Source: an uncultured Bacilli bacterium (GTDB taxonomy: Bacteria; Bacillota_I; Bacilli_A; RF39; UBA660). Taken from it: DNA of 64,000 nt. Of this stretch, positions 2,472-48,332 are shown in pieces. Within the stretch, counting starts at the first letter, position 1; each line of letters starts with the position of its first letter. The notes beneath the pieces are model-generated. The model searched no databases. It saw only the letters and a list, made by a program, of their open reading frames with translations, and was not told the DNA's origin. The stretch is from NCBI GenBank assembly GCA_934162195.1, contig CAKPHO010000001.1, positions 81,281-145,280 on the forward strand, given 5' to 3'. A program made the translations under genes and the position numbers.

Positions 2472-2891
2472 TTATCTCTTTTCTTTAAAAAAAGATTTTA
2501 TACAATCAATATATTCATTTGATATTTTACATTCGCAAATGTCTAATTTTGATTCTATATTATATTTACTTTTAAATCCAAAATTCATATTTTTTAATCC
2601 ATAATTAATCTTGCTTATTCGCGATTGTTCTATTGCTCCATAACACATTAAACAAGGTTCCATTGTTGTATAGATTTCGCACCCGTCTAAATGCCATGTT
2701 TTTAATTTTTTACATGCTTTTTCTATAGCTATAATTTCAGCATGTTTAGTTGTTATTTTTTTATTTTCTTTTTTATTGTAAGCTTTAGATATAATTTTTC
2801 CATTTTTAACAATAACAGAACCTATAGGTACTTCTTGTTTTTTATAGGCTTTTATTGCTTGATTTAAGGCTATATTCATATATTCATTCAT
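2472..2891 (-). CDS. tadA: tRNA-specific adenosine deaminase
   Basis: Deaminase zinc motifs HAE and PCLMC. I place the start at ATG 2891-2889 behind a GGTGA RBS. The 11 extra N-terminal codons in the ORF track (MFHVEHFEGDK) are the parS palindrome read as protein. Confidence 0.85.
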   Translation of the reverse strand: MNEYMNIALNQAIKAYKKQEVPIGSVIVKNGKIISKAYNKKENKKITTKHAEIIAIEKACKKLKTWHLDGCEIYTTMEPCLMCYGAIEQSRISKINYGLKNMNFGFKSKYNIESKLDICECKISNEYIDCIKSFFKEKR

Positions 2892-2942: not shown

Positions 2943-2958
2943 TGTTTCACGTGAAACA
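2943..2958. promoter_or_regulatory. parS site 2
   Basis: TGTTTCACGTGAAACA, a perfect palindrome and an exact consensus match. It lies immediately downstream of the SRP RNA U-tail. Confidence 0.9.
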
Positions 2959-2969
2959 TTATAAAAAAA

Positions 2970-3042
2970 GCACACACATTTAGAGGATCTTAAGGCTGCT
3001 ATTTTCCAATTCTGACCTGGTTCAAACATAAATGTTGTGCAC
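2970..3042 (-). ncRNA. ffs: Signal recognition particle RNA, small (4.5S/Mollicute-like) type
   Basis: The minus-strand RNA is GUGCACAACAUUUAUGUUUGAACCAGGUCAGAAUUGGAAAAUAGCAGCCUUAAGAUCCUCUAAAUGUGUGUGC followed by U7. It has the conserved SRP domain IV (CCAGGUCAG .. GGAA tetraloop .. AGCAGCC) closed by a ~13-bp terminal helix. Its position next to tadA/dnaX matches B. subtilis scr. Ends are approximate (+-5 nt). Confidence 0.8.
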
Positions 3043-3119
3043 TAATAATATATTATATTTTTAATCTTTTTTCAACATTATATAACCTAATTTATAATTA
3101 AATTAAAAATAACCACATA

Positions 3120-3135
3120 TGTTTCATGTAAAATA
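3120..3135. promoter_or_regulatory. Degenerate parS-like site
   Basis: TGTTTCATGTAAAATA matches the perfect parS palindrome at 13 of 16 positions. The left half-site is intact and the right half-site has decayed. Confidence 0.4.
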
Positions 3136-3156: not shown

Positions 3157-3172
3157 TATTTCCCGGGAAATA
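3157..3172. promoter_or_regulatory. Noc-binding site (NBS) palindrome 1
   Basis: TATTTCCCGGGAAATA read directly. It is identical to the 16-bp NBS (core ATTTCCCGGGAAAT) described for B. subtilis Noc. The CCCGGG core is conspicuous in DNA this AT-rich. Confidence 0.8.
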
Positions 3173-3190
3173 GTTCTACAGAAAAAAGAA

Positions 3191-3206
3191 TGTTTCACGT
3201 GGAACA
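3191..3206. promoter_or_regulatory. parS site 3
   Basis: TGTTTCACGTGGAACA, which matches every specified position of the parS consensus TGTTNCACGTGNAACA. It lies 5 bp from the gyrA stop codon. Confidence 0.85.
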
Positions 3207-3211
3207 TTCTT

Positions 3212-5674
3212 TTATTGTTCAATTGCTTGTTCTGTAGCATCTTCGTTTTCAACGTTATCTTCTTTTTTTAATATTGATATATTTCCAACCTTTTGATTAT
3301 CCTTTAAATTTATTAATCTTACACCTTGAGCTACTCTACCTGTATTAGATACTTGCGTTAAATTTAAGCGTATAATTATTCCAGAATTAGTTACGATCAT
3401 TAAGTCCTCATCACCTTCAACCATTCTGAAAGCAACTATATTACCGTTTTTTTCTGTTATATTTAAGGCTTTTACACCTTTACTACCACGATGTGTCATT
3501 CTGTATTCATCTATGTTAGTTTTCTTTCCATATCCATTTTCAGTAACTATTAATACGTTTTTATTTGGATCAGAAACTTCACATCCAACGGCTTTTCCAT
3601 CATCAACTTCAATTCCTTTAACACCAGCAGCACTTCTACCCATAACTCTGATTTCATCTTCTTTAAATCTGATCATTCTTCCGTTGGAAGATGCTATTAA
3701 AATTTGGTTATCTCCAGTAGTTTTCTTAACATCTAATAATTCATCATCTTCTTTTAATGTTATTGCAAACTTACCATTTGATCTAATACTGTCAAATTCT
3801 TCAAGTTTAGTTCTCTTAACTAAACCAGTTTGTGTACAAAATACAATATATTTGGATTCGTCGTTATTTTCTATCTTTAACATAGCCTTAACAACTTCTT
3901 CTTTTTCTATTGGTAATAAATTAATTATTGGAATTCCTTTTGATTGTCTATTAAACAAAGGAATTTCATAACCTTTTAATCTATATACTTTTCCTTTGTT
4001 TGTAAAGAATAATATATAATCATGAGTTGTCATAGAAAGTAAATATTGTACAAAATCTTCTTCATTTGTAGACATTCCTTTAATTCCAACTCCACCCCTA
4101 TTTTGTGATTTAAAATTATCACTTAATACACGTTTTATATATCCTTTGTTTGTCAAAGTAATTACAATATCTTCAACTGGAATTAATGATTCATCTTCTA
4201 TATAATCTATTGCTGTCATATCAATTTTTGTTCTTCTATCATCGCTGTATTTATTTTTAATTTCGGTTAATTCTAACTTAATTATATCTAAAACTTTTTG
4301 TTCAGATCCTAAAATTGCTTTTAATTCCTTAATACGTTCTAATAAATCGTTTAATTCATTTTCAATCTTATCTTTTTCTAAACCAGTTAATCTTCTTAAT
4401 TTCATTTCTAAAATAGCTTCACACTGAATTTCATCTAAAGGAAATTTAGACATTAACTGTTCTTTAGCTATATCATCTGTCTTTGATGCTTTAATTATCT
4501 TAATAACTTCATCAATATTATCTAGAGCTACTTTTAAACCTTCTAAAATATGAACTCTCGCTTCACATTTATTCAAATCAAATCTTGTTCTTCTTATAAT
4601 AATTTCTTTTTGATAATCAATATATTTAGTTATAATATCTTTAAGTCCTAGTGTTTTTGGAACACCATTATCAAGCATTAAGAATATAATTCCATAATTT
4701 GTTTGAAATTGAGTATGCTTATAAAGATTATTTAAGACAACTTGTGGATTTGCATCTCTTTTTAGTGTAATAGTTATTTTAATACCATCTTTTAAATCAG
4801 TATGATAATCAGAAATACCATCAATTGTTTTATTATGTACTAATTCTGCAACTTTGTTTTTTAATTCCATTGTATTAACACCATATGGAACTTCATCAAT
4901 TACTATGTAATTTTTACCATCTTTCTCTTCTATAGTAGCCTTACTTCTTATTGTGATAGTGCCACGGCCTGTTTCATAAGCCTTTTTAATACCGCTATTA
5001 CCTAAAATTATTCCACCGGTAGGAAAATCTGGTCCTTTTATATATTCCATCAAACCTAAAGTATCAATATCTGGATTATCAATATAAGCAATACATCCAT
5101 CTATAACTTCTCCTAAATTATGTGGTGGAATATTAGTAGCCATACCTACCGCAATACCCATTGTTCCATTAACTAATATATTTGGAAATCTTGATGGTAA
5201 TATTGAAGGTTCTTTTTCTGATTCGTCAAAGTTTGGAATAAAATTAACGGTATCTTTATTAATATCTCTTAATAATTCCAATGATATTTTTGATAATCTA
5301 GACTCTGTATAACGCATTGCAGCTGCACCATATCCTTCGATATTACCAAAATTACCATGCCCATCCACTAACATATGACGATAATTAAAATCTTGAGCCA
5401 TTCTTACCATTGCTTCGTATATTGAAGAATCTCCATGTGGATGATATTTTCCCATTACATCTCCAACTATACGAGCTGATTTTTTATGAGGCTTGTCTGG
5501 TGTGTATCCAGATTCATACATTGACCATAAAATTCTACGATGAACTGGCTTTAAACCGTCACGTAAATCTGGTAAAGCTCGTGATACTATTACACTCATA
5601 GAATACTCTAAAAATGATGATTTTACCTCTTCTACTATATTATTTTCTTCTAATCTATCTCTACTATGATCCAT
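3212..5674 (-). CDS. gyrA: DNA gyrase subunit A
   Basis: 820 aa with the quinolone-region motif [15 protein letters not shown] and the catalytic-tyrosine motif AAMRYTE. It follows gyrB. Confidence 0.97.
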
Positions 5675-8867: not shown

Positions 8868-9317
8868 TTACTGATTTTTTCTATTTCTTAAAATTGATTC
8901 CAATCTTGATGCACGTAAAATTTGACTTTCTAATGAAAAAATTGAAATACTAAAATTAACTATGCTGTCATTTTTAAATATAATATCAGAACCTTCATTA
9001 TTTCTTAAATAAGTCTTTAAATTATTTAATGAAACCCAAGAACAATTTATTAATCTTGGAGATGTTGTAGGAAAAAAGATTATATTTTTACTTTCTTCTA
9101 TTATTATTGGTAATTTATAATTCATACCTATCATATTTTTTGTTCCTTCATATCTTCCTTGATACGTACTACCATAATAATTACAACTATCGTCAATTAT
9201 TTCAAAACAAGGTTTATTGACAATATATTCATTATCTAACTCAATAATTTTTGATGTATATTCATCAATTGGCATAACAGCTAGTGTACCACTATTTATT
9301 TCATAATTTTCTAACAT
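8868..9317 (-). CDS. ComK-family competence transcription factor-like protein
   Basis: 149 aa. From memory of B. subtilis ComK it is similar along its whole length: EINSGTLAVMP ~ EVNGATIAVLP; SCNYYGSTYQGR ~ SCRFFGSSYAGR; IFFPTTSPRLINCSWVSL ~ IFLFPTLSSTRPQCGWIS. It is shorter than Bsu ComK at the C-terminus. Confidence 0.7.
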   Translation of the reverse strand: MLENYEINSGTLAVMPIDEYTSKIIELDNEYIVNKPCFEIIDDSCNYYGSTYQGRYEGTKNMIGMNYKLPIIIEESKNIIFFPTTSPRLINCSWVSLNNLKTYLRNNEGSDIIFKNDSIVNFSISIFSLESQILRASRLESILRNRKNQ

Positions 9318-10728: not shown

Positions 10729-12081
10729 CTATTTTATTTGATTAACTATTTTATTAATTTGTTCTTCTAAATCACTGTTAGTTTTAATCTCTTTTTTAAT
10801 TTTATCTACTGAATGCATTACTGTAGTGTGATCTTTTCCACCAAATTCTAATCCTATTTTAGGTAAAGATTCGGAAAGATAAGTTCTACATATATACATA
10901 CCTATTTGTCTAGGAACAGAAATACTTGCCATTCTTTTCTTACTTTTTATATCTTCTACAGAAATATTATAAGCATTGGCAATTAATTGTTGTACTTGTT
11001 CAATTTTATTTTTTGATATAATACTTTTAACAAAATAATCTTTTAAAGCTTCTGTTGCTAAATCTATTGTAATATCAGACCCATTCATGATAGTTGCATA
11101 AGCAAAAACTCTTGTAATAGCTCCTTCAAGTTTTCTTATATCAGAAGTACAATTGCTAGCAATATATTCTTTAACTTCAATAGGAAAATCATTGCATACA
11201 TCATTTGCTTCTATTTTTTTATCAATAATATCCATTCTTAATTTAAAATCTGGTGGTAAAATATCTATAGTTAAACCCCAGTTAAATCTAGTTCTAAGTC
11301 TTTCTTCTAATTTTTTTAAATCATCTGGTGATCTATCGGAAGAAATAATAATTTGTTTATTATTACAATGTAATTCATTAAAAGTATTAAAAAATTCTTG
11401 CTGTGTTTTACTTGCTATTTCTAAGTATTGAATGTCATCAATCATTAACACATCAACATTTCTATACTTATTTTTAAATTCGTTTATAGCATCAAAATTA
11501 TTTTCATCTTTATTTTTCCTATATATATTTAAAAAATCATCAACAAATTTTTCACTAGTTACATATAATACTTTTTTATTACTATTTTTAACAATGTAAT
11601 TTCCGATAGCATGCATTAAATGAGTTTTACCTAAGCCACTATTTCCATATATAAATAAAGGATTATACATAAAGCCAGGCTGTTCTGCAACTGCCAAAGA
11701 TGTAGCTTTAGCAAATTTATTACTATTTCCCACAATAAAATTATCAAATGTGTATTTAGGGTCAAGATTAGATTCAAATAAATTATTAGATGGAACCCCT
11801 ACTTTATCCACATCAATAGTAACATTTTTTATAATTTCTTCTTCTAATACATATTCAAATTTGAAATTACTACCAGTAATTTCAGTAAAAATTTCTTCTA
11901 TGAGATTATTGTAATTTTCTTTAAGGTGTTTTTTATGTACCTGCATGGGTACTAATATTTTAGCAGTATTATTATTTAATTCTATTAATTTAGTATCCAT
12001 AAACCACGTTTCATAAAGTATAGGATCAAGTTCCCCTTTTATTTTTTCTAAAAAAAGGTTCCAAATAGTATTAATATCCAC
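10729..12081 (-). CDS. dnaA: Chromosomal replication initiator DnaA
   Basis: 450 aa with a GTG start, Walker A GNSGLGKTHL and the C-terminal DNA-binding signature GGKDHTTVMHS. Confidence 0.97.
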   Translation of the reverse strand: MDINTIWNLFLEKIKGELDPILYETWFMDTKLIELNNNTAKILVPMQVHKKHLKENYNNLIEEIFTEITGSNFKFEYVLEEEIIKNVTIDVDKVGVPSNNLFESNLDPKYTFDNFIVGNSNKFAKATSLAVAEQPGFMYNPLFIYGNSGLGKTHLMHAIGNYIVKNSNKKVLYVTSEKFVDDFLNIYRKNKDENNFDAINEFKNKYRNVDVLMIDDIQYLEIASKTQQEFFNTFNELHCNNKQIIISSDRSPDDLKKLEERLRTRFNWGLTIDILPPDFKLRMDIIDKKIEANDVCNDFPIEVKEYIASNCTSDIRKLEGAITRVFAYATIMNGSDITIDLATEALKDYFVKSIISKNKIEQVQQLIANAYNISVEDIKSKKRMASISVPRQIGMYICRTYLSESLPKIGLEFGGKDHTTVMHSVDKIKKEIKTNSDLEEQINKIVNQIK

Positions 12082-12349
12082 AAACTCACCTCACTTTAAC
12101 AATTGTTAACATTATTTTACACCAAAAAAAAATAAAAACCAATATAAACTGTGGAAAAATATTAAAATTCGACAAATTAACACAATTTTCCACACCAAAC
12201 GACATTATTTTTAAAAGAATAATTATATTATTAACACCCTTTGTGGAAAATTAATTAACATAGAAAATCATATGTTGGTAAGTTTTCCACATACACTGTG
12301 GAAAATAACATTTGATATTATAAATTAAGAAAAAATAATATGTGGAAAA
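12074..12349. other. oriC part 1: DnaA-box cluster between dnaA and rpmH
   Basis: Seven boxes were read directly: ATATCCACA 12074-12082 (overlaps the dnaA GTG), TGTGGAAAA 12150-12158, TTTTCCACA 12186-12194, TGTGGAAAA 12242-12250, TTTTCCACA 12283-12291, TGTGGAAAA 12297-12305 and TGTGGAAAA 12341-12349. Confidence 0.85.
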
Positions 12350-12375
12350 AATATATTTATAATGATAAAAAACAT

Positions 12376-12404
12376 TTGACAAATTTATAATTTATCTATA
12401 TAAT
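12376..12404 (+). promoter_or_regulatory. Consensus sigma-A promoter of rpmH
   Basis: TTGACA (12376-12381), a 17-bp spacer, then TATAAT (12399-12404). Confidence 0.75.
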
Positions 12405-12442
12405 GGTTAAAGCGATGAAATATAGGCTTTAGGAGGTGGACT

Positions 12443-12565
12443 ATGAAAAGAACATTTCAACCAAATAATAGAAAAAGAAGTAAAAAAATGGGTTTTTTAG
12501 CTCGTATGAAAACTAAAATGATCAATTCAAGAAGAAGAAAAGGTCGTAAAGTTTTATCACGCTAA
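12443..12565 (+). CDS. rpmH: 50S ribosomal protein L34
   Basis: Not in the ORF track because it is short. My own translation is [40 protein letters not shown], behind an AGGAGG RBS and upstream of rnpA. Confidence 0.93.
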
Positions 12566-12615
12566 TATATAAGGTCACTGCAAAACAGTGGCCTTTAGTT
12601 TAAAGAAGGTGCTAT

Positions 12616-12966
12616 ATGAAAAAAAAGAATATATTAAAAAAAAGTATAGATTTTGATAGAATAATAAAAAAAAATAAATCATATAAATATAAAGATTATA
12701 TAATATATGTAGAAAAAATTGAAGATTCTACTTATCATTTTGGATTATCAGTTGGAAAAAAAATAGGTAATGCCGTTACTAGAAATAAAATAAAAAGGCA
12801 GTTAAAAACTATAATTGATAAAAATAACTATGAAAACGGAATTAATTGTATTATAATAGTAAGGAAAGGTTTATTAGAAAAATCTTTTTCAGAAAAAGAA
12901 AACGATTTAATAGAAGCTTTTAAAAAAGTAAATATAATTAAGGAGAAATGTAATGAAAAAAAATAA
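12616..12966 (+). CDS. rnpA: Ribonuclease P protein component
   Basis: 116 aa and basic (..GNAVTRNKIKRQLK..). It follows rpmH. Confidence 0.9.
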   Translation: MKKKNILKKSIDFDRIIKKNKSYKYKDYIIYVEKIEDSTYHFGLSVGKKIGNAVTRNKIKRQLKTIIDKNNYENGINCIIIVRKGLLEKSFSEKENDLIEAFKKVNIIKEKCNEKK

Positions 12967-13891
12967 ATTAAAAATATTTGTTTTACTTTTTACTGTTGCT
13001 TTAACACTAACAGGTTGCACTAAAATACTTAAAAATAATGATAAAAAAGTAGTTCAAAATACGTTAACAGGTCAAAATCTAGTAGAAAATATATTATGTA
13101 AACCAACAGATGAAAATACATTAAAATTATATAGAGAAAATAATGTAGACGTTGATTCTTTAGTAGATTGTAAAAATTTTAGCGTAGCATCTGGGGGATA
13201 TGAAGGAATATGGACAACTATATTTGTAAAACCTTTAGCCTGGATAATAATAAAAATAGGAAATCTTGTTAAAAATTATGGGTTGTCAGTTATAATTGTA
13301 ACTTTATTAATAAGAATGATTTTATATCCTATAACTAAAAAAACAGCTTTACAATCAGAAAATATGAAAAAAGCTAAACCTGAGTTAGATAAGTTAGAAA
13401 AAAAATATAAAAATAGACAAGATAATGAAGCACAAATTCAAAAATCTCAAGAGATGATGATGATATACAAAAAAAATGGTATAAATCCATTATCTGGATG
13501 CTTATTCTCATTCATTCAGATTCCTTTGTTCTTTGCATTTTATGAAGCAATGAATAGAATACCAGCATTGTTTGAAGAAAATTTATTAGGATTCCAATTA
13601 GGTACAAGTCCTTTAACAGCAATGAGTAATGGTAAATTTTATTATATAATATTTATAATCTTAGTTATTGCAACAACATATTATTCATTTAAATTGAATT
13701 CTACTGCATCAATGAGTAGTGATCAAGAAAAACAAATGAAAATGATGAGTAATATTTCAATTATATTTATTTCAATCGCATCATTTACTATTTCAACTGG
13801 AATTGCATTGTATTGGATATTCAATAGTGGATTTACAATACTACAAAATTTGTTAGTTAAAAGGAGCAAGAAGAATGCAAATGTTATATAA
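12953..13891 (+). CDS. yidC: Membrane protein insertase YidC/SpoIIIJ (lipoprotein)
   Basis: Lipobox LTLTGC and the insertase core (..INPLSGCLFSFIQIPLFFAFY..). It overlaps the rnpA end. Confidence 0.9.
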   Translation: MKKNKLKIFVLLFTVALTLTGCTKILKNNDKKVVQNTLTGQNLVENILCKPTDENTLKLYRENNVDVDSLVDCKNFSVASGGYEGIWTTIFVKPLAWIIIKIGNLVKNYGLSVIIVTLLIRMILYPITKKTALQSENMKKAKPELDKLEKKYKNRQDNEAQIQKSQEMMMIYKKNGINPLSGCLFSFIQIPLFFAFYEAMNRIPALFEENLLGFQLGTSPLTAMSNGKFYYIIFIILVIATTYYSFKLNSTASMSSDQEKQMKMMSNISIIFISIASFTISTGIALYWIFNSGFTILQNLLVKRSKKNANVI

Positions 13892-14489
13892 ATATGAAGG
13901 AAAAAATAAAGAAGAAATAGAAAATAAAATTTTATCAGAATTAAACACATCTAAAGAAGATTTATTTATTAAAATAAAAGAAGAAGAAGGAACATTATTT
14001 AAAGCAAAAAAATATATATATGAAGTAGCTAAAAAAGAAGATATTATTGCTTTTGTTAAGAATTATGTAGAAGAATTAAGTAATAAATTTGGTGTTGAAA
14101 TAAAAAGTGAAGTTAGATTTAAAGAAGATATCTTATATATTATTTTAGTATCAAATAATAATGCTATTATAATAGGTAAAGAAGGAAGAATTTTAACATC
14201 TCTTCAAGTATTAATAAAAAATACGCTTAATAATAAAACAGGTTTTAATATTAAAGTAAATCTTGATGCTTCAAATTATAAAGCAAAAAAACAAAAAAAT
14301 TTAGAATATGAAATTAAAAAAATAGCAAAGGATGTTTTGAAATCGCATGTCGATGTAAAATTAGATCCGATGAATTCTTATGACCGTAGATGTGTCCATA
14401 ATGTAGTATCAAAGTTTGAAAATCTAAAATCTGAAAGTTTTGGAGAAAATCCAAACAGATATGTAGTAATAAGTTATAAAGGGGAATAA
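13875..14489 (+). CDS. jag: RNA-binding protein Jag/KhpB (KH + R3H)
   Basis: 204 aa with KH-like IIIGKEGRIL and the R3H region DRRCVHNVV. It follows yidC. Confidence 0.85.
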   Translation: MQMLYKYEGKNKEEIENKILSELNTSKEDLFIKIKEEEGTLFKAKKYIYEVAKKEDIIAFVKNYVEELSNKFGVEIKSEVRFKEDILYIILVSNNNAIIIGKEGRILTSLQVLIKNTLNNKTGFNIKVNLDASNYKAKKQKNLEYEIKKIAKDVLKSHVDVKLDPMNSYDRRCVHNVVSKFENLKSESFGENPNRYVVISYKGE

Positions 14490-14559
14490 AACCCTTTATT
14501 TTTTTATTGACTAAAATACTATTTAATACTAAAATATATCTAGCAAAGGAGAGATTATT

Positions 14560-15906
14560 ATGGAAGATACTATAGCTGCAATCGCCACATCATTAGGTGT
14601 AGGTGCAATATCAATTATTAGAGTAAGTGGTTCAGAATCAATAAAAATAGTAAATAGTATTTTTAAAGGTAAAGATTTGGAAAAACAACAAACCCACACT
14701 ATAACTTATGGACATATAGTAGAAAATGGTAAAATAATAGATGAAGTTTTGATATCTATTATGAAATCACCAAAAAGCTTTACAACAGAAGATACAGTAG
14801 AAATAAATTGTCATGGTGGAATATCTACAACCAATAAAGTATTAGAATTACTTTTAAATAATGGATGTCGTTTAGCTGAACCTGGTGAATTTACTAAAAG
14901 AGCCTTTTTAAATGGTAGAATAGATTTAATAGAAGCAGAAGGAGTAATGGATTTAATTAATTCTAAAACGGAAAAAGCTAGAAATTTAGCAATAAATCAG
15001 CTAAGTGGAACTTCTTCTGAGCTTATTAAAGAATTACGAAAAGAAATAGTTGAAATTCTTGCTAATATAGAAGTTAATATTGATTATCCAGAATATGACG
15101 ATATAGCTGTATTATCTACACAAATAATAAAACCTAAAATAACTGATATAATAAAGAGATTAAAAGAGATAATAAATCATAGTGAAAATACTAAAATCAT
15201 AAAGGAAGGCATAGATGTCTTAATTCTTGGTCGTCCAAACGTAGGAAAAAGTAGTTTATTAAATAGATTATTAGAGGAAGATAAAGCAATAGTAACGGAC
15301 ATAGAAGGAACAACGAGAGATATAGTTGAAGGAAAAATAAATTTAGATGGAATTATTTTAAATATAATAGATACGGCTGGAATTAGAAAAACAGAAGATG
15401 TTGTTGAAAAAATAGGTGTAGAAAAAAGTTTAAGTTTAATAGATAAAGCTGATTTAGTGTTGTTTTTATTAAATAATAATGAAGATATAACTTCAGAAGA
15501 TAAAAAGATAATAGAACAGTTAAAAAATAAAAATCATATAATTGTTATTAATAAATGTGATTTAACTAAAAAATTAAACTTAAGTGATAATGGATGTGTA
15601 TATATAAGTGCAAAAGAAAATATAGGTATAGATGAATTAAAAAATAAAATAAAAGAACTTTATAATTTAGAAAAAATAGAAACAGAAGATTTATCTTATT
15701 TAAGTAGTGCTAGAAGCATTTCTTTGTTAAAGCAGGCTATGCAATCTTTAAAAAGTGCTGATAAAGGTATAGATGATAATTATCCAATAGATATGGTAGA
15801 AATAGATATTAAAGATAGTTGGAATATATTAGGCGAAATAATTGGTGAAACATATGAGGAAGAGTTAATAGACCAATTATTTAGTCAATTTTGTTTAGGA
15901 AAGTAG
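14560..15906 (+). CDS. mnmE: tRNA modification GTPase MnmE
   Basis: G motifs GRPNVGKSS, DTAGIR and NKCD, and a C-terminal FCLGK. Confidence 0.95.
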   Translation: MEDTIAAIATSLGVGAISIIRVSGSESIKIVNSIFKGKDLEKQQTHTITYGHIVENGKIIDEVLISIMKSPKSFTTEDTVEINCHGGISTTNKVLELLLNNGCRLAEPGEFTKRAFLNGRIDLIEAEGVMDLINSKTEKARNLAINQLSGTSSELIKELRKEIVEILANIEVNIDYPEYDDIAVLSTQIIKPKITDIIKRLKEIINHSENTKIIKEGIDVLILGRPNVGKSSLLNRLLEEDKAIVTDIEGTTRDIVEGKINLDGIILNIIDTAGIRKTEDVVEKIGVEKSLSLIDKADLVLFLLNNNEDITSEDKKIIEQLKNKNHIIVINKCDLTKKLNLSDNGCVYISAKENIGIDELKNKIKELYNLEKIETEDLSYLSSARSISLLKQAMQSLKSADKGIDDNYPIDMVEIDIKDSWNILGEIIGETYEEELIDQLFSQFCLGK

Positions 15907-17783: not shown

Positions 17784-18480
17784 AACTGAATTTATAGAAG
17801 CTTTAAAAAATTTAAATATTCAACTTACAGACAGACAATTAGAACAACTAAATAAATATTATCAGCTTTTAGTTGAATGGAATAAATTTATGAATTTAAC
17901 TGGAATAACCGAAGAAAAAGAAGTATATTTGAAACATTTTTACGATAGTCTAACAATTGCTAGAATAATAGATTTAAAAAAAGAAAGAACACTATGTGAT
18001 ATAGGGAGTGGTGCAGGATTTCCAGGAATGGTTTTAAAGATAGTTTATCCTGATTTAAAGATAACTTTGGTTGATTCATTACAAAAACGTATAACATTTT
18101 TAAACGAAGTGGTAAAACAGTTAGATTTAAAAGATATAGAATTAGTTCATGACAGAGCAGAAGATTTTGCTAAAAATAACCGTGAAAAATATGATGTTGT
18201 AACAGCCCGTGCAGTAGCGCCAATAAATATTTTGATAGAGTATTGTTTACCATTGGTAAAAGTTGGGAAATATTTTATACCTATGAAAGGAAATATTTCC
18301 CGGGAAATAAATTTATTAGATAATTCTCTAAAAAAGATAGATGGAATGTTGTTAAAAAGTGATGAATTTTTACTACCAAAAGAAGACAGCAATCGTACTT
18401 TATTATTAATAACAAAACAAAAACCAACATCAAAACGATATCCCCGTAATCCAAAAGAAATAAAAAATAAGCCTTTATAG
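17776..18480 (+). CDS. rsmG: 16S rRNA (guanine527-N7)-methyltransferase RsmG
   Basis: SAM motif DIGSGAGFPG. The GTG start overlaps the mnmG stop. Confidence 0.9.
   Translation: MDKTEFIEALKNLNIQLTDRQLEQLNKYYQLLVEWNKFMNLTGITEEKEVYLKHFYDSLTIARIIDLKKERTLCDIGSGAGFPGMVLKIVYPDLKITLVDSLQKRITFLNEVVKQLDLKDIELVHDRAEDFAKNNREKYDVVTARAVAPINILIEYCLPLVKVGKYFIPMKGNISREINLLDNSLKKIDGMLLKSDEFLLPKEDSNRTLLLITKQKPTSKRYPRNPKEIKNKPL
18294..18309. promoter_or_regulatory. Noc-binding site (NBS) palindrome 2, inside rsmG
   Basis: TATTTCCCGGGAAATA read directly, in the codons for ..NISREIN.. Confidence 0.8.
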
Positions 18481-18492
18481 GTTTATTTTTTT
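18469..18492 (+). terminator. Intrinsic terminator after rsmG
   Basis: AAGCCT-TTAT-AGGTTT stem (one G-U pair) followed by a T-rich run. Confidence 0.55.
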
Positions 18493-18536
18493 ATTTCCCA
18501 AAAACTATTGAAATATTTCCCAAACTATAGTATTAT
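18492..18536 (+). promoter_or_regulatory. Promoter of the noc-like gene with two NBS half-site direct repeats
   Basis: TTGAAA (18508-18513), a 17-bp spacer, then TATTAT (18531-18536). TATTTCCCAAA occurs twice (18492-18502 and 18514-18524), 22 bp apart. The second copy fills the promoter spacer. Confidence 0.6.
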
Positions 18537-18569
18537 ATTAATATAAGAGAATAAGGAAGGGGAATTATT

Positions 18570-19814
18570 ATGGATAATAATAGAAAAGTGGTAGAACTTC
18601 CTTTAGAAGATGTTTTACCTAATAGATTTCAACCAAGAATAAAATTTAGTGAAGAAGCAATTAATGAATTATCTGAATCAATAAAAGAGCATGGAGTAAT
18701 ACAACCAATTGTTGTAAGACCGGTTGGAGACAGGTATGAAATTATAGCTGGCGAGAGAAGATTTAAAGCAACAACTTTAGCTGGTATTCCTACAATACCT
18801 GCAATTATTATAAATTTAAACGATAAAGAAAGTGCTGAAGTAGCATTAATTGAAAATGTTCAACGCCAAGATTTAACACCAATAGAAGAAGCTATATCTT
18901 ATAAAAAAATTCTAGATATGGGATATTTAAATCAAGAAAATTTAGCAGAAAAAATTGGAAAAAGTCAATCTGCTATAGCAAATAAATTAAGATTATTAAA
19001 TCTAGATGAAGATGTTCAAGAGGCATTATTAAATGGAAAAATATCAGAAAGACATGCACGTTCTTTATTAAAATTATCAAATAAAGAAGATCAAGTAAAA
19101 TTATTAAATAAAATAATAACAGAAAGATTAACTGTTAGAAAAACAGATGAGGAAATAAATAAAATGTTGACTGGAATAAAAGAAGAAAAGAATATACAAA
19201 ATGATGTTGAGGTTTTAAATTTTGATGAACCAATTATTATCCCGGCGGATTCATCAGAAGAAGTACTATCAAATTTAAATATTCCGAGCAATCCTATTAT
19301 TGAACCATCAAAAGATTTACCACAATCAGACAAAGATTCAATAATAAATCCTTTTTTAAATATAGAATCAGAGAAAAAAGAAGAACTTCCTAGATTTAGT
19401 GATTTATTAAAACCAAATAACTCGGATAAAATTTCAGAACAAAAACAAAGTAATTTTTTTACTGCTCCTTTTGAACCTGAAAATACTACAAAAGATATAA
19501 ATCCAACCGATTATGAATTTAATAACACTTTAGTACCAAACGAGGAACCAAGCAACAAAGATTTTACCATATCTCCAAACTTTGGCATTCCTAAATTTGA
19601 TGATTCCATTTTTAATGCAGATTCAAAAAATAGTACAATAAGTAACCCTGTAGTATCTTCAAATTCTGAAGTAGAAACAAGAAATCTTAAGATGGTTATT
19701 GATACATTTAGAGAATGCGAAAAAACTATTGAAAAATATGGTTTTATAGTAGATACAGAAGAATTTGATTTAGAAGATATGTATCAAGTTGTATTTAAAG
19801 TTCATAAGAAGTAG
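18570..19814 (+). CDS. noc: ParB-family protein with a Noc-type recognition helix (nucleoid occlusion protein-like, atypical architecture)
   Basis: ParB N-domain motifs PNRFQPR and AGERRFKA. The HTH region GKSQSAIANKLRLLNL..ISERHARSL resembles Bsu Noc (GKGQSTIANKLRLLKL..ITERHARAL) rather than Spo0J (GKSRPHIANHLRLLTL..LSMGHGRTL). It sits right after rsmG, as noc does in Bacillus. Confidence 0.75.
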   Translation: MDNNRKVVELPLEDVLPNRFQPRIKFSEEAINELSESIKEHGVIQPIVVRPVGDRYEIIAGERRFKATTLAGIPTIPAIIINLNDKESAEVALIENVQRQDLTPIEEAISYKKILDMGYLNQENLAEKIGKSQSAIANKLRLLNLDEDVQEALLNGKISERHARSLLKLSNKEDQVKLLNKIITERLTVRKTDEEINKMLTGIKEEKNIQNDVEVLNFDEPIIIPADSSEEVLSNLNIPSNPIIEPSKDLPQSDKDSIINPFLNIESEKKEELPRFSDLLKPNNSDKISEQKQSNFFTAPFEPENTTKDINPTDYEFNNTLVPNEEPSNKDFTISPNFGIPKFDDSIFNADSKNSTISNPVVSSNSEVETRNLKMVIDTFRECEKTIEKYGFIVDTEEFDLEDMYQVVFKVHKK

Positions 19815-30726: not shown

Positions 30727-30741
30727 TTGAATAAATATCAA

Positions 30742-30780
30742 AAAGATTGTCCACTATTAAATAGAAAGGACAATCTTTTT
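30742..30780 (+). terminator. Strong hairpin plus T-run ending 1 nt before the spoIIR ATG
   Basis: AAAGATTGTCC - 15-nt loop - GGACAATCTTT followed by TT. The 3' arm contains the only SD-like GGA for spoIIR. Confidence 0.7.
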
Positions 30781-31305
30781 ATGAAAAAAACAATATTTAT
30801 TTTAATAACAATATTTTTAATTTATTATATAATTGGAGCTTTAAGTGAGGAGATAATAAGGATTCCAGACGAGGCAATTAGATTTAGAGTAATAGCTAAT
30901 AGTAATACAAAACAAGATCAAGATGTAAAATATAAAGTAAAAGATGAAGTAGAATTATATATGGCATCGATTTTACAAAATGTTGATAATATTGATGAAT
31001 CTAGAGATATTATTTCTACTAATTTAGATAGTATAAATAATAAAGTGACTAATGTATTTAATAAAAATAATTACAATCTAAATTATAAAGTTAATTTTGG
31101 ATTAAATTACTTTCCTGAGAAAGAATTCAAGGGAATAATTTATGATGCTGGATATTATGAATCACTAGTTATCACCATTGGAGAAGGAAAAGGTGATAAT
31201 TGGTGGTGTGTATTATTTCCTCCTTTATGTATGTTAGAAGCAGAAGAAAGTACAGACATAGAATATAAATCTTTTGTAAAGGAAATTGTTGATAAGTATA
31301 TATAA
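30781..31305 (+). CDS. spoIIR: Stage II sporulation protein R
   Basis: Signal/TM segment then IRFRVIANSN.. and the family motif GEGKGDNWWCVLFPPLC. The start is at ATG 30781. Confidence 0.8.
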   Translation: MKKTIFILITIFLIYYIIGALSEEIIRIPDEAIRFRVIANSNTKQDQDVKYKVKDEVELYMASILQNVDNIDESRDIISTNLDSINNKVTNVFNKNNYNLNYKVNFGLNYFPEKEFKGIIYDAGYYESLVITIGEGKGDNWWCVLFPPLCMLEAEESTDIEYKSFVKEIVDKYI

Positions 31306-37118: not shown

Positions 37119-38351
37119 TTATTTTTTAATTATTTTTTTAACTATTTTATAAGTCTTAAACATGAAATTATATAAACAATATTTAGGTTTTGATATTATT
37201 AAGTCAAATTCTCCAATTAGTTCAACAACTCGTCCGCCAAAACCTCTTTTAAATTCATAAACACCATACATATCATTGTTTTCTTTTTCAAAATTACCAC
37301 TTATACCATAGAAGTTATATATTTCACATCCTAAATTTAAGGCTTCTTTCATCGTATGCCATTTTATCAAATATTGAGCATCATAATGCATAAATTCTTC
37401 ATAAGCTCCACCAAATAAATTTAAATATTCTTTTCCACATACAATAGACATTGTGCCTGCCAAAGGGATTTTATCACCATATTTTTTTTGGTAACTCTCG
37501 TATAGTTCTATTTTCTTTTTATAATCTTCTATATCTTTCAAATGATAATCTTTAATATCTTGGTATCCTTCAATCTTTTTTATTTCATCTTTAAATTTAT
37601 TTATACCTAAATTTGTATCAAGGTAGCACACATTTATTATTAGGTCCTCACCAATTTTATCATACATGTTTTCATAATACGAATAAGGTCTATCAATGAA
37701 ATCACGTCTTGAACTTGTGTGTTCCATTATTTTTTTGTAGTCCATTAGTTTATCTTTAGAAATTCTTTCAACAACTAAACCTTGCTTTTCTGTTCTTCTA
37801 ATCGTTTTTCGATAATGTTTACTAAAGTTAGAAAAAATTTCATCTTCGGTCTTACCTTTTAAATCTAAAACGTACATCCAACGAGGTTGCAATTCTTTAG
37901 ATATATCTTTGTTAAAACCATAATGTTTAAAGCCTAATTTCTTTAAATTTTCTACTACTTTGGAGTTGTCAACTCCACCTTCAACGATATTTCCATCAAT
38001 ATCTCTTGTTTTGTATTCAACATAAGGATCTATTTTCAAAATAAACCCGTTTTCCTTTTTTACATATTCTTTAATTTCTAAAACAAACTCTTTTAATAAT
38101 TCTTCATCATTATAATCAATTAAAAAACCTCTTGGTGAATAAAAAAGCTTTAATCCTAGTGGGAGATTTTTAAATAATAATAAAGTTGCTCCAACAATTT
38201 TATTATTTTTCTTCATTCCTACTAATTTGTAATTCCAACCACCATCTTTTTTTAGTTTTCCCCAATATTCTTTTTGATAAAAAGTTGTATATTTATTTTT
38301 TGAGATATATTCTTCATATTCGTTACTTTCTAATTCTTCTATCTTCATCAT
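37119..38351 (-). CDS. FemABX-family peptidoglycan peptidyltransferase, paralogue 1
   Basis: 410 aa with family blocks FYSPRGFLIDY, ILKIDPY and YNFYGISGNF..GVYEFKRGFGG, plus a central coiled-coil insert as in FemA/FemB. Confidence 0.85.
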   Translation of the reverse strand: MMKIEELESNEYEEYISKNKYTTFYQKEYWGKLKKDGGWNYKLVGMKKNNKIVGATLLLFKNLPLGLKLFYSPRGFLIDYNDEELLKEFVLEIKEYVKKENGFILKIDPYVEYKTRDIDGNIVEGGVDNSKVVENLKKLGFKHYGFNKDISKELQPRWMYVLDLKGKTEDEIFSNFSKHYRKTIRRTEKQGLVVERISKDKLMDYKKIMEHTSSRRDFIDRPYSYYENMYDKIGEDLIINVCYLDTNLGINKFKDEIKKIEGYQDIKDYHLKDIEDYKKKIELYESYQKKYGDKIPLAGTMSIVCGKEYLNLFGGAYEEFMHYDAQYLIKWHTMKEALNLGCEIYNFYGISGNFEKENNDMYGVYEFKRGFGGRVVELIGEFDLIISKPKYCLYNFMFKTYKIVKKIIKK

Positions 38352-38541
38352 ATCCCTCCAAGCCTAAGGCAATTATATCACGCCAACAAAAATCTGTAAA
38401 TAAATATAGGTTAAAATAACTGACACTAGTATATCTGTTTTTAATGTCGTTTATTGACTAGTTTAGTGATTTTCTTAAAAAAACTTTTATTAAAAATTAT
38501 TTTGTAGTATGATATTAATAGTTATGATTGGAGGGAATTTA

Positions 38542-39780
38542 ATGAAATTCGAAATATTAAGTGAAGATGAATATAATAAATTTTTTGACAATCATGAACA
38601 AAAAACTTTTTTAAATAGCCCTAATATTGGTAAAATTCGCAAACTAGAAGGTTGGAATTATGAATTTGTTGGTGTAAAAGATGTCGACAATAAAATAATA
38701 GGCGTTACTATGTTATTGTCTAGGAAAGAATTTCTAGGTAAAAAAGAATTTTATGCAATTAGAGGTTTTTTGTTAGATTACAATAATTTTAAGTTACTAT
38801 CCTTTTTTACAGATAATATTAAAAAATATATAAAGAAAAATAATGGCTTTATATTAAGAATTGATCCCTATATTATCAAACAAGAACATGACTTAAATGG
38901 AAATGTTATGCCAAATGGGAAAAATAATATTATGGTTATAAAAAATCTATTGAAACTAAATTTTAAGGAACATACACCAGAGCAAACAAAGTGGATGTTT
39001 GAACTTAATACTGAAAATAAGACTATAGATGAACTTTTAAAAGATATGAAAGCTAATACTAGAAATTGCATTAAAAGAACTTTTAAAAATGGAATTAACA
39101 TTAGAGAACTTACTTATGATGAGCTACCTCTCTTTTATAAAATAACAAATGATACTAGTAAAAGAAAAGGTTTTGAAAATAAAACTTTAGAATATTATCA
39201 AGACATGTATAAATTTTTCAAACCAAGTAATCAAGTTAAATTTTTGGTGGCTGAATTAAATACAAAAAATTATAAAGAAAACCTAGATAATCAATTAAAG
39301 ACAGAAGAGAATATTTTAAGAGGAATAAAAAATAATAATAGTGGAAAATATAAAGAACAACTAGTAAAGATTAATAGTATTAAAAAAAATCTCAAAGAAT
39401 CATCTGAGTTGATAAAAAAAGGAGATATAATCATTTTATCAGCAGCAATGTTTGTTATGTATGGAAATGAAGTTATTTATCTTGCTAGTGGAAATTACCA
39501 AGAATATTTTAATTTTTTTGCTCAATATAGAATTCAATATGAAATGATTAAATATGCAACAGAAAATAACTTTAAAATATATAATTTTTACGGTATAAGT
39601 GGTAATTTTGATATCAATGATGATAGAATTGGTGTCTATGAATTTAAAAAAGGATTTGGTGGATTTGTAGTTGAATTAATTGGCGAGTATAGATTAGATA
39701 TTAATAAATTATGGTGCATTCTTTATGATTTTGTTAATGTTATTAAAAATAATATAAAGAAAATAATAAATGGGAAGTGA
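38542..39780 (+). CDS. FemABX-family peptidoglycan peptidyltransferase, paralogue 2
   Basis: The same blocks (FYAIRGFLLDY, ILRIDPY, YNFYGISGNF..GVYEFKKGFGG) and a coiled-coil insert. The start is at ATG 38542 behind GGAGGG. Confidence 0.85.
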   Translation: MKFEILSEDEYNKFFDNHEQKTFLNSPNIGKIRKLEGWNYEFVGVKDVDNKIIGVTMLLSRKEFLGKKEFYAIRGFLLDYNNFKLLSFFTDNIKKYIKKNNGFILRIDPYIIKQEHDLNGNVMPNGKNNIMVIKNLLKLNFKEHTPEQTKWMFELNTENKTIDELLKDMKANTRNCIKRTFKNGINIRELTYDELPLFYKITNDTSKRKGFENKTLEYYQDMYKFFKPSNQVKFLVAELNTKNYKENLDNQLKTEENILRGIKNNNSGKYKEQLVKINSIKKNLKESSELIKKGDIIILSAAMFVMYGNEVIYLASGNYQEYFNFFAQYRIQYEMIKYATENNFKIYNFYGISGNFDINDDRIGVYEFKKGFGGFVVELIGEYRLDINKLWCILYDFVNVIKNNIKKIINGK

Positions 39781-39784
39781 AATT

Positions 39785-41053
39785 ATGAAATATGAATTTA
39801 TAGAAAAAATTGAAAAAAAAGAGTATGAAAAATTTGTGGAAAATCATCCAACTAAATCACATTTTATGCAATCGTGGAATTTTGGAGAAATAAGTAAAGA
39901 AAAAGGATTTATTCCACATTTCGTTGGTGTTAGGAAAAATAAAAAGTTAGTAGCAACAGCTTTACTACTTCAAAAAAAGTTATATAAAAATATTTGTTAT
40001 TTCTATAGTCCTCGTGGTTATGTTTTAGATTTTAAAGATTATGAATTATTAAAATATTTTACTAATCAAATTAAAGAGTATACCAAAAAATATCATTCTA
40101 TTTTTACAGCAATAGATCCTGATGTACAACTTCAAAAGTTAGATATTAATGGAAATGTTGTAGAAGGAGATCATAATTATGCATTAGTTGAATATTTAAA
40201 ATCGCTAGGTTATAAACATCTTGGTTTTAATAAAAATTTTGAAAATAAAGAACCAAGATATACATTTAGATTAAATTTAGAACCAAGTATAGAGGAAATA
40301 CATAAAAATATGCATGCAACAACAAGAAAAATTCTAAATAAAGGTAATCAGTATAACTTAGATTGTTATATTGGCGATTCTTCAGATTTAGATGGATTTT
40401 ATTTTACGATGAAAGAAACAGCAGTTCGAGAGGGGATAACACCGTTTAAATATTCATACTATAAATCTTTTTATGAAACATTTAATAAAGATAATGAAAG
40501 TGATTTATATATAGTAAGAGTTGATATTAATAAATTAAAAGAAAATTATAAAAATCAAATAAAAGACATTGAAAATAGTATTGACAATCTAAAAAATTTA
40601 AAAAATAAAGAAAAAGCTAATAATTTATTAAAAGATTACAATAATAAATTATCTAGATTAAATAAAGATTTTGAGTTAATAAATAATATAAAGGAAGATA
40701 AATTAGTTTTATCATCAATTATAACAGTAAAATATGGTAATAAAGTTTGGACTGTTCATGGTGGTAATTGCAATAGATTAAGAGAATTGAATGCCAATTA
40801 TTTAATATACGATAAAATCATTTGCGATGCTAAAAAGGAAAATTATCAAATAATTGATTTCTTTGGAACAACTGGCGCAGACTCAGATGATAATAAAATT
40901 CATGGTATCCATTTATTTAAAAAACGTTTAGGTGGAGAATATACTGAATTTATAGGTGAATTCCATTTAATAACAAATAAATTTTTATATGTTTTATATC
41001 AAAAATTATTACCATTATATTCAAAAATGCGTAAAAAAATTGCTAAAAAATAA
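39785..41053 (+). CDS. FemABX-family peptidoglycan peptidyltransferase, paralogue 3 (most divergent)
   Basis: FYSPRGYVLDF, TAIDPD and IDFFGTTG..GIHLFKKRLGG, with a long coiled-coil insert. The start at ATG 39785 is 5 nt after the paralogue 2 stop. Confidence 0.85.
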   Translation: MKYEFIEKIEKKEYEKFVENHPTKSHFMQSWNFGEISKEKGFIPHFVGVRKNKKLVATALLLQKKLYKNICYFYSPRGYVLDFKDYELLKYFTNQIKEYTKKYHSIFTAIDPDVQLQKLDINGNVVEGDHNYALVEYLKSLGYKHLGFNKNFENKEPRYTFRLNLEPSIEEIHKNMHATTRKILNKGNQYNLDCYIGDSSDLDGFYFTMKETAVREGITPFKYSYYKSFYETFNKDNESDLYIVRVDINKLKENYKNQIKDIENSIDNLKNLKNKEKANNLLKDYNNKLSRLNKDFELINNIKEDKLVLSSIITVKYGNKVWTVHGGNCNRLRELNANYLIYDKIICDAKKENYQIIDFFGTTGADSDDNKIHGIHLFKKRLGGEYTEFIGEFHLITNKFLYVLYQKLLPLYSKMRKKIAKK

Positions 41054-46396: not shown

Positions 46397-47311
46397 ATGA
46401 AAAAAATCATTTTAATCATTTTAGCAATTATTTTTATCCCATATATCATTGTAAGTTTATTCATAAGAACTGATGATATAAAATTTTATTATAAAGAAGG
46501 AATGAATGTTAGAGTAAAAAGAGAACAAACTAATACTATAGAAGTTGTTCCTTTTGAAGATTATGTTGTTGGTGTTTTAGCAGGAGAAATGCCAGTAAAT
46601 TTTGAGTTAGAAGCACTAAAAGCCCAAGCAGTAGCAGCTAGAACTTATGTTATGAAAAAAATGAGTGATAATAGAAACAAAGATTATGATATTGTTGATA
46701 CAGTACAAAATCAAGTATATATTAGTGATGAAGAGCTAAAAGATAAATGGAAAGATAAATATCAAGAACGAATTAATAAAGTAAAAAGAGCTGTATTAGA
46801 AACAAAAGGAGAATATTTGTCTTATAATGGCAAAGTAATAGAAGCTTTCTTTTTTTCTACAAGTGTAGGAAAAACAGAAAATAGTGAAGAAGTTTTTAAA
46901 CAGTCTCTTCCATATCTTAGAAGTGTAGATTCAACTTGGGATGAAGAAGTATCCCCTGTATTTAATGATTCAAAAGAATATAGTATGCAGGAATTTTATG
47001 AACGCTTAAATTTAAAATATTCTGATAAAATTAAAGTAGAAATTTTGAATACTACTAGTACTGGTAGGATAAAGAATATTAAAATTAATAACAAAAAATT
47101 TACTGGTAGTGAGGTATATAAAAACTTAAATTTACGTTCAACCTTTTTTGAAATAAATCAAATTGGCAGTAATGTTATTATCAATACCAAAGGATATGGT
47201 CATGGAGTAGGAATGAGTCAATATGGAGCTCTGGCAATGGCGAAAAAAGGTTATAAATATGATGAAATACTAAAATATTATTATCAAAATATTCAAATTG
47301 AAAAAATTTAA
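46397..47311 (+). CDS. spoIID: Stage II sporulation protein D (lytic transglycosylase)
   Basis: N-terminal anchor and SpoIID/LytB domain blocks EALKAQAVAARTY and GYGHGVGMSQYGA. Confidence 0.88.
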   Translation: MKKIILIILAIIFIPYIIVSLFIRTDDIKFYYKEGMNVRVKREQTNTIEVVPFEDYVVGVLAGEMPVNFELEALKAQAVAARTYVMKKMSDNRNKDYDIVDTVQNQVYISDEELKDKWKDKYQERINKVKRAVLETKGEYLSYNGKVIEAFFFSTSVGKTENSEEVFKQSLPYLRSVDSTWDEEVSPVFNDSKEYSMQEFYERLNLKYSDKIKVEILNTTSTGRIKNIKINNKKFTGSEVYKNLNLRSTFFEINQIGSNVIINTKGYGHGVGMSQYGALAMAKKGYKYDEILKYYYQNIQIEKI

Positions 47312-48312: not shown

Positions 48313-48332
48313 AAAGGAAAGTGAATGTTCAA

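Follow-up and report, generated by a model that had tools for sequence, protein, structure and literature searches.

Noc-Binding Sites Interleaved with parS Sites in the gyrA-tadA Spacer of Uncultured Bacilli

The gyrA-tadA Spacer in the Replication-Origin Region

The DNA analysed here (the window) is a 64-kb stretch from an uncultured Bacilli bacterium, which forms part of a 133-kb metagenomic scaffold (ENA ERZ28614312), has a G+C content of 26.3% and represents a replication-origin region. Its minus strand carries, in the direction of transcription, dnaA, dnaN, comK, recF, gyrB, gyrA, a 320-bp spacer, tadA, dnaX and ybaB, and its plus strand rnpA, yidC, jag, mnmE, mnmG, rsmG and a gene of the ParB family. 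The spacer between gyrA (3212-5674, minus strand) and tadA (2472-2891, minus strand, a gene call of 139 amino acid residues) is the subject of this work, since it contains a Noc-binding site (NBS) within a cluster of parS sites. The cluster is located about 8-9 kb from dnaA (10729-12081, minus strand), the marker of the origin region. Also inside the spacer are ffs, the gene for the small signal recognition particle RNA (2954-3050, minus strand; Rfam 56 bits), and a promoter-like site for it at 3075-3047.

The NBS at 3157-3172 (TATTTCCCGGGAAATA), read from the sequence and recovered by a motif scan, is a perfect 16-bp palindrome, and its core ATTTCCCGGGAAAT is identical to the core of the published B. 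subtilis Noc oligonucleotide (PMC8429893). A gap of exactly 18 bp (3173-3190) separates it from the nearest parS site, TGTTTCACGTGGAACA at 3191-3206, which lies 5 nt past the gyrA stop. A perfect parS (TGTTTCACGTGAAACA, 2943-2958) forms the centre of a 32-nt palindrome overlapping the ffs 3' end, and a further parS (TGTTCCACGTGGAACA, 2908-2923) lies 17 bp upstream of the tadA start codon. These three sites fit a palindrome of the TGTTNCACGTGAAACA type and are, like known parS sites, origin-proximal and multi-copy. A fourth one (TGTTTCATGTAAAATA, 3120-3135) has decayed to three mismatches and is intact in two sister strains (L130 and L131; L numbers denote related loci).

When up to three mismatches were allowed, three NBS were found against 0.30 expected in 64 kb, a number reached in 0 of 100 shuffles, and four parS sites against 0.35 expected. 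As both counts are above chance, the initial annotation had described the sequence correctly in placing a perfect NBS 18 bp from a parS, within a parS cluster of the tadA-gyrA spacer. Its statement that the two site types are told apart by positions 2 and 7 of each half-site is likewise in agreement with the literature (PMC7383237, PMC8429893), where the difference is confined to these positions (PMC7383237). A central-base change that it had assigned to the parS at 3191-3206 has to be corrected, the extra change being at position 12, which is non-central and mirrors the variable position 5 of the consensus.

Two more NBS were detected in the window. The second perfect one (18294-18309) is embedded in the 3' part of rsmG, where its codons spell N-I-S-R-E-I and include a CGG, in a genome of 26% G+C. 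At the corresponding place L210 has a perfect NBS and L213 one with a single mismatch; in L125, L211 and L212 the site is degenerate. This gene-embedded NBS is analogous to the parS inside B. subtilis spo0J. An NBS with one mismatch (868-883) is found in the 3' part of dnaX, a region in which 20 of 97 related loci have an NBS.

Read on the minus strand, two of the parS sites can fold. The site at 3191-3206 with its flanks (3172-3216) gives a hairpin with an 11-bp stem followed by the U-run UUUUUUCU (-9.1 kcal/mol, z = -2.4), and that at 2943-2958 is the centre of a hairpin with a 16-bp stem at the ffs 3' end (2928-2974; -14.8 kcal/mol, z = -5.3). Centromere sites may thus double as terminators. 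The hairpin fold of the parS at 2908-2923 was no different from those of shuffled sequences (z = -1.55), and an RNA hairpin or terminator at the NBS 3157-3172 was ruled out (z = 0.1).

Recurrence, Conservation and Spacing of the Two Site Classes

Species-representative genomes were scanned with the pattern ATTTCCCGGGAAAT-N(3-33)-GTTNCACGTGNAAC, which corresponds to distances of 17-47 bp between the centres of the two sites. An NBS beside a parS was found at no fewer than 120 loci in at least 120 species. Nearly all of the matches listed are labelled as uncultured Bacilli, 'Tenericutes' or 'Clostridium sp. CAG:417/710/1000' metagenome-assembled genomes (MAGs), and no Bacillus or Staphylococcus is among them, which at the centre distances scanned is suggestive and no proof. 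The genes gyrA and/or tadA were present in 118 of the 120 matches listed, with GyrA 48-78% identical to that of the window, and the NBS-parS pair was inside the gyrA-tadA spacer in 76 of the 81 listed loci having both genes.

Two or more heterotypic pairs occur in 79 of the 120 matches listed. Tandem arrays repeat a parS+NBS unit as many as 13 times, the unit measuring 62-84 bp or about 117 bp; they are exemplified by L017 (8+8 sites, 64-bp unit), L082 (9+9 sites, 75-bp unit) and L083 (13+12 sites, unit of about 80 bp); similarly regular arrays are present in L048, L014, L119 and L060. The spacer sequences of the arrays are unrelated from genome to genome, so that each array is of independent origin. 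A mobile or viral origin of the composite was ruled out by the finding of 0 matches to NBS+parS in 2.9 million viral contigs. A third conserved spacer motif, such as DnaA boxes, was also discarded, the recurrent words being ffs k-mers and AT-rich sequences only.

In the pattern-selected loci, half-sites sharing the common backbone fell into two classes, (G,A) with 874 and (A,C) with 654 members, and every hybrid class had at most 5. Among the shared-backbone 16-mers no palindrome joined an NBS half with a parS half. Such discrete classes without mixed palindromes indicate two separate homodimeric binders of exclusive specificity, contrary to a single promiscuous one.

Divergence from the unit consensus, determined in nine arrays, was 1.4% for the parS core and 3.0% for the NBS core as compared with 6.5% for the spacer (p = 1e-7 and 6e-4, respectively), and reached 8.5% at the two positions of parS known to be free. 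The NBS core is conserved in the arrays despite the AT mutation pressure on its GC-rich sequence.

The distance between heterotypic neighbours is typically 22-50 bp; between homotypic parS neighbours it is for the most part about 100 bp or greater. With each distance counted once per locus, NBS-parS centre distances peak near 26, 36 and 46-47 bp; they follow a periodicity of 10.5-11 bp, which after collapsing related spacers is moderately significant (p = 0.002 versus a smooth null and 0.04 versus a uniform null). Overlapping NBS and parS sites were absent from the pattern-selected loci, the minimum distance being 17 bp. The initial annotation had considered that the two proteins would collide, compete or be co-tethered on the same few hundred bp. 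The lack of overlap together with the helical phasing disfavours competition and would favour simultaneous occupancy, with the proteins on roughly opposite faces of the helix. The clusters end in parS on both sides in 53 cases, in NBS on both sides in 14, and in one of each in 43.

The Noc-Type ParB Paralogue

The sole ParB-family gene of the window (18570-19814, plus strand) is located directly after rsmG, 15 kb from the spacer NBS, and encodes a protein of 414 amino acid residues; the gene order rsmG-noc of the window is shared by L123, L125 and L210-213. The protein consists of a Noc-like N-terminal domain (NTD) plus DNA-binding domain (DBD) at residues 5-203, a disordered insertion at about 205-370, and a Noc-like C-terminal domain (CTD) at 371-414. 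Comparison with structure databases gave 190-220 bits for Noc of Geobacillus and B. subtilis versus 145-182 for ParB/Spo0J, the top PDB matches being the Noc entries 7NG0/7NFU/7OL9 (220 bits) and the best ParB entries attaining 172-182. The native protein scored 293.2 bits with the NCBIfam Noc model TIGR04285, under the curated cut-off of 315; when the insertion was deleted in silico, it covered the whole model including the CTD and scored 307.8 bits, still below 315.

The specificity residues of the window protein are Q173, K179, N184 and R201 (Caulobacter numbering), and the pattern Q-K-(N/K/E)-R was found in 120 of 120 of the best database homologues. At these positions Noc has QKKR and ParB has R..G; the pattern Q-K-x-R suffices for NBS specificity, and Q173 and R201 require no more than one lysine, at either 179 or 184, to be permitted (PMC7383237). 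On account of the structure scores, the TIGR04285 match and the specificity residues, the predicted protein is Noc-type rather than ParB-type. The residues of the cytidine triphosphate (CTP) motifs, G61 E62 R63 R64 (GERRxRA box) and E95 N96 V97 Q98 R99 (ENxQR), are invariant in 28 aligned homologues; in Noc, the substitutions R89A and N121S abolish CTP binding (PMC8429893).

The N-terminus is short, residue 5 being aligned with Noc residue 26, and the PNRFQPR box begins at residue 15-17 in all of the best 120 homologues. An amphipathic membrane-targeting helix is absent from the window protein and from these homologues (121 proteins). In Noc, this helix and helix alpha2 confer CTP-gated membrane binding, and loss of the amphipathic helix impairs nucleoid occlusion by Noc variants (PMC8429893). 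The coupling of segregation to division-site control proposed in the initial annotation is not supported, because the helix is missing in all 121 proteins. The N-terminus of the window protein, MDNNRKVVELPL, is also devoid of the ParA-binding motif (L/F/I)G(K/R)G(L/F/I) (as defined in PMC12704722), as expected for Noc-type orphans.

The insertion comprises about 165 residues in the window protein and 145-287 across the homologues, and is acidic and rich in Pro, Asn, Ser and Thr; at residues ~205-370 it contains 15% E, 7% D, 10% P, 10% N and almost no R. Recurring motifs are N[IV]PxxP[IV][IMV] (in most cases with E next), [LIV]PxFx[DE]LL, PGKFFN and SPNFGIPxFDD. AlphaFold modelled the insertion as disordered, with a short helix near 275-277 where the per-residue confidence (pLDDT) was slightly higher, the NTD and DBD (5-203) with confidence, and the CTD (371-414) as a helix plus hairpin. 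The [IV]PxF core is reminiscent of the C-terminal peptides of FtsZ and SSB.

The noc-type gene has a promoter region with two ATTTCCC half-sites of the NBS, 22 bp apart (18493-18521, plus strand), which are conserved in six related loci. The module ATTTCCC-(15 nt)-ATTTCCC-AAAnTATAGTAT is located within 18481-18569 of the window, 9886-10000 of L123 and 9889-10000 of L125, and precedes the noc-type gene in L210-L213. Its half-sites bracket or fill the spacer between -35 and -10, the first being inverted in L125 and L212. The conservation of these promoter half-sites suggests that the noc-type gene is autoregulated, in keeping with NBS-type recognition. Like the conserved NBS cores of the arrays, they lend indirect support to binding of the NBS by the Noc-type protein. 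After the noc-type gene of L125 there is a 1208-residue open reading frame (11591-15217) with no Pfam match.

Relatives Sampled Independently of the Site Pattern

A sample free of selection for the pattern was assembled from metagenome loci chosen by TadA similarity and from DnaA homologues with 10-kb flanks, and represented 16 lineages. Every clade member in it with gyrA-tadA synteny has a cluster of 2-9 parS sites in the spacer, and 58 of the 64 parS sites in the 16 loci are inside it. The Noc-type gene with Q-K-x-R was present in all four DnaA-anchored relatives. Outside the spacer, the NBS density in the origin regions is about 0.02 per kb, at the two recurrent places in 3' rsmG and 3' dnaX. 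In L164 an NBS is located between parS sites 70-75 bp off, and L211 has an NBS remnant with two mismatches 20 bp from a parS. The sister strains L130 and L131 keep the NBS position of the window with one mismatch (CCTGGG in both), and there the NBS has a parS to either side, 34 and 37 bp away.

The universal element is the parS centromere, and the co-residence of NBS with it is a sporadic elaboration that has recurred many times. Conservation of the NBS-parS adjacency in relatives had been put forward as a check on the initial annotation. The adjacency does recur in the gyrA-tadA spacer of at least 120 species; as a conserved ancestral trait it fails, with an NBS in the spacer of 2 of the 16 unbiased lineages.

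Other Genes of the Window

In the origin operon, a comK homologue (8868-9317) separates recF from dnaN, an order kept in every related locus spanning the interval. Endospore genes (spoIIR, spoVB-like, spoIID, spoIIQ, spoVT, bofA) were recognized in the window (30727-31305, 41157-42794, 46397-47311, 47366-47995), in L127 (20059-20297) and in L129 (3183-3371), and mreB is found at 48309-49325 of the window. MAGs of this lineage often bear the labels Tenericutes, Mycoplasma or Erysipelotrichaceae; judged from the endospore genes and mreB, the clade looks like walled, sporulating, low-GC Bacilli, and it probably corresponds to RF39-like orders of GTDB. At 37119-41053, three neighbouring paralogues of the FemAB family (peptidoglycan cross-bridge) stand beside an ATP-grasp gene of the RimK-family/D-cycloserine-synthetase-like type and an aminotransferase-like gene.

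A Proposed Composite Centromere and Its Alternatives

The best reading of the locus, which we hold tentatively and with slightly less than even confidence, is a composite centromere co-occupied by ParB and an anchor-less Noc paralogue. The gyrA-tadA spacer would be the origin-proximal centromere of these low-GC, spore-forming uncultured Bacilli, with its parS cluster bound by ParB. NBS sites would have been added to it in the lineage of the window and in no fewer than 120 further species, and would be bound by a CTP-clamp paralogue derived from Noc in which the membrane anchor is lost and a long disordered stretch of acidic character has been gained. Each homodimer would read its own palindrome independently and side by side with the other, centres about 26, 36 and 47 bp apart corresponding to roughly n+0.5 helical turns without overlap. 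The same few hundred bp could in this way nucleate a mixed nucleoprotein complex of ParB and the Noc-type protein. The disordered region with its short hydrophobic motifs might serve as an interaction platform at the origin region, and the Noc-type protein would not perform classical nucleoid occlusion by membrane tethering.

In its favour are the recurrence of the composite at one syntenic place, the independently formed arrays, the two discrete half-site classes, the lower divergence of both cores than of the spacers, the phased and non-overlapping spacing, and a Noc-type protein that has NBS half-sites in its own promoter, a disordered linker and no membrane helix. Several findings weigh against this reading. 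The ParB search extended over about -20 to +52 kb of dnaA, L127, six 21-kb origin loci, and 120 + 45 spacer loci; it combined tblastn with the Noc-type NTD/DBD (window and 120 loci), a scan for deviant Walker-A motifs, and inspection of the gene neighbourhoods of two distant noc-type genes. No gene of the ParB type (R173/G201) was detected in the 64-kb window, its 10-kb left extension or about 170 related loci, and tblastn revealed no ParB-family gene in the 120 matches listed. The deviant Walker-A scan found no ParA in the window, and no parAB operon is adjacent to noc or oriC in the origin regions examined. A canonical ParB is presumably encoded elsewhere in the genome, as deduced from the parS sites only. 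Of the two paralogous clamps envisaged in the initial annotation, a Noc-type paralogue with NBS residues and an intact CTP motif is encoded 15 kb from the spacer, and the existence of the ParB partner, its simultaneous binding and the role of a joint complex are what we infer.

The unbiased sample speaks in the same direction. The two lineages with a spacer NBS are the species of the window itself (L130/L131, GyrA 98% identical) and L174, and the other 14 of 16, including the closest other relatives (GyrA 81-85%), have parS-only spacers. NBS enrichment in this sample is marginal, with 2 observed versus 0.17 expected (p = 0.013, the flagged lineage included). Some relatives have tandem arrays of 5-9 copies made of parS only (L139 1394-2196, L150 683-1496, L165 20-218), spaced by about 35-65 bp in L165 and about 100-250 bp in L139 and L150. 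These arrays show that the clade generally tends to amplify its centromere sites, whether or not NBS are involved, and the strict alternation elsewhere could have come about simply because the duplicated unit chanced to include an NBS.

Further, any site inserted in a spacer packed with parS falls within about 50 bp of one. Sites turn over rapidly among sister strains with GyrA 98% identical: the window has lost one parS (3120-3135; compare L131 4757-4772 and L130 4686-4701) and L130 another, such decay of single sites implying that each is individually dispensable and the cluster is not. The loci behind the periodicity are partly non-independent. Caution about the composite centromere is imposed above all by the missing ParB gene, the parS-only arrays and the density of the spacer, which puts any insert near a parS.

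The main rival, which we consider unlikely though deserving of serious attention, is co-location without coupling. A Noc-type protein with a few origin-proximal loading sites (rsmG, dnaX and sometimes the spacer) and ParB would act independently, the spacer being one of the few non-coding places able to take a 16-bp palindrome, and the arrays would derive from duplication-prone parS units with a chance NBS. Such a view accommodates the NBS in rsmG and dnaX, away from any parS, the 14 parS-only lineages, which retain the noc-type gene where it is visible, the parS-only arrays (L139, L150) and the turnover of individual sites between sister strains. It does not account for NBS cores about twofold better conserved than the spacer in arrays, for the helical phasing of the NBS-parS distances, for the amplification of NBS-containing units in many independent lineages, or for a state common to at least 120 species.

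Alternatively, a Noc-type dimer at an NBS, or ParB at a parS, might act as a roadblock or insulator to the sliding clamp of the other kind, confining its spreading to the spacer so that gyrA, ffs and tadA-dnaX are shielded from silencing, or concentrating clamps in the centromere. Both families of CTP clamps slide from their loading sites (PMC8429893), and S. aureus Noc is enriched over 8-10 kb around each peak (PMC5540599). The sites of the window abut the gyrA stop (3212) and the ffs promoter (3075-3047), and the tight alternation in arrays leaves no room for sliding. A boundary element would, however, be expected at the edges, and the idea is weakened because the cluster ends are mostly parS; most relatives, moreover, have no spacer NBS at all. 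We regard a roadblock role as improbable.

A single protein serving both sites seems very improbable. It would mean that the clade has no canonical ParB, parS as well as NBS being served by the Noc-type protein in one state or in two. Every origin region examined contains a single ParB-family gene, and parB is normally found in the origin region. Dual-specificity variants can be engineered in the ParB/Noc family (PMC7383237). A dual binder should nevertheless tolerate hybrid or mixed palindromes, and this explanation is weakened because the half-site classes are strictly discrete. Against it, too, the parB gene of S. aureus lies far from noc. Besides, Q173 and R201 are the NBS-switching residues, R173 and G201 are reported to be invariant in parS binders, and dual variants mostly have T or S at 201 (PMC7383237). 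S. aureus, a Bacillus-class organism which bears Noc, also has ParB, without ParA (PMC5540599).

In its strongest form, the composite centromere would have a Noc paralogue turned second centromere protein, co-assembling with ParB where NBS and parS alternate in helical phase. The two CTP switches would load within 10-30 bp of each other and work as a single complex in positioning the origin, in loading SMC or in septum-related capture in sporulation. This is possible, and we rather doubt it. More extreme still, the clade may lack a canonical ParB altogether, the parS binder being something unexpected.

ParB and Noc are a textbook case of a duplicated DNA-binding protein whose copies parted both in their sites, which do not overlap, and in their tasks, ParB serving segregation and Noc the control of division. 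In the present case both classes of site are reunited, and in many lineages co-amplified in alternation, and the Noc copy is without the feature that defines the known mechanism. If the two clamps co-assemble, they would provide a natural system for studying CTP-clamp behaviour at crowded loading sites, and for asking whether paralogous N-terminal domains of the ParB fold interact and what else the Noc scaffold can do. The parS cluster of the gyrA-tadA spacer is in addition an origin-proximal centromere marker for a large group of uncultured gut Bacilli.

Comparison with Known Systems

What is new is the arrangement of the sites and the architecture of the protein, each site type and each protein family having been described before. 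Full-text literature searches returned no account of NBS placed among parS sites or in alternation with them, and none of a Noc orthologue without the membrane helix, in line with the initial annotation, to which no description of the interleaved arrangement was known.

Noc and NBS of B. subtilis and Geobacillus (Wu 2009; Adams 2015; Jalal 2020, 2021) are the closest counterparts. They share with the window the identical 16-bp NBS core, an NTD plus DBD about 55-60% identical (estimated by eye; 220 bits to 7NG0/7NFU), residues Q173 and R201 with the permissive K179, a CTD matching the Noc model, the CTP-motif residues and a gene position after rsmG. The window protein differs in being without Noc residues 1-26 (the amphipathic membrane-targeting helix alpha1 and helix alpha2), a natural counterpart of the NocN-delta-26 construct; proteins of its type have an acidic disordered insertion of 145-287 residues before the CTD, and it scores below the NCBIfam Noc cut-off (293 versus 315). 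The NBS known so far are dispersed along the chromosome, away from the terminus, and in the literature searched are not described beside parS, whereas here they are embedded in a parS cluster and co-amplified with it.

The parS sites resemble the ParB-parS clusters of B. subtilis Spo0J and others in being canonical TGTTNCACGTGNAACA palindromes, multi-copy and within about 10 kb of oriC, and they are universal in the clade. In contrast to those clusters, the sites are packed in one intergenic spacer, often tandemly amplified and interleaved with a second class of palindrome, and the origin regions examined in the clade have no parAB operon beside noc or oriC.

In S. aureus, as in the reading favoured here, Noc coexists with an orphan ParB without ParA and uses the same NBS consensus (Pang 2017, PMC5540599). 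S. aureus Noc has taken on an origin-related role, the control of replication initiation, but unlike the window protein it has kept membrane association (PMC5540599). A precedent for functional coupling through neighbouring sites, by analogy, is KorB-KorA of plasmid RK2, where a CTP sliding clamp of the ParB family is set by a second DNA-binding protein at a nearby operator (PMC11790492). KorA differs from the Noc-type protein in being no ParB paralogue, and the RK2 pair serves transcription repression on a plasmid and has no alternating arrays.

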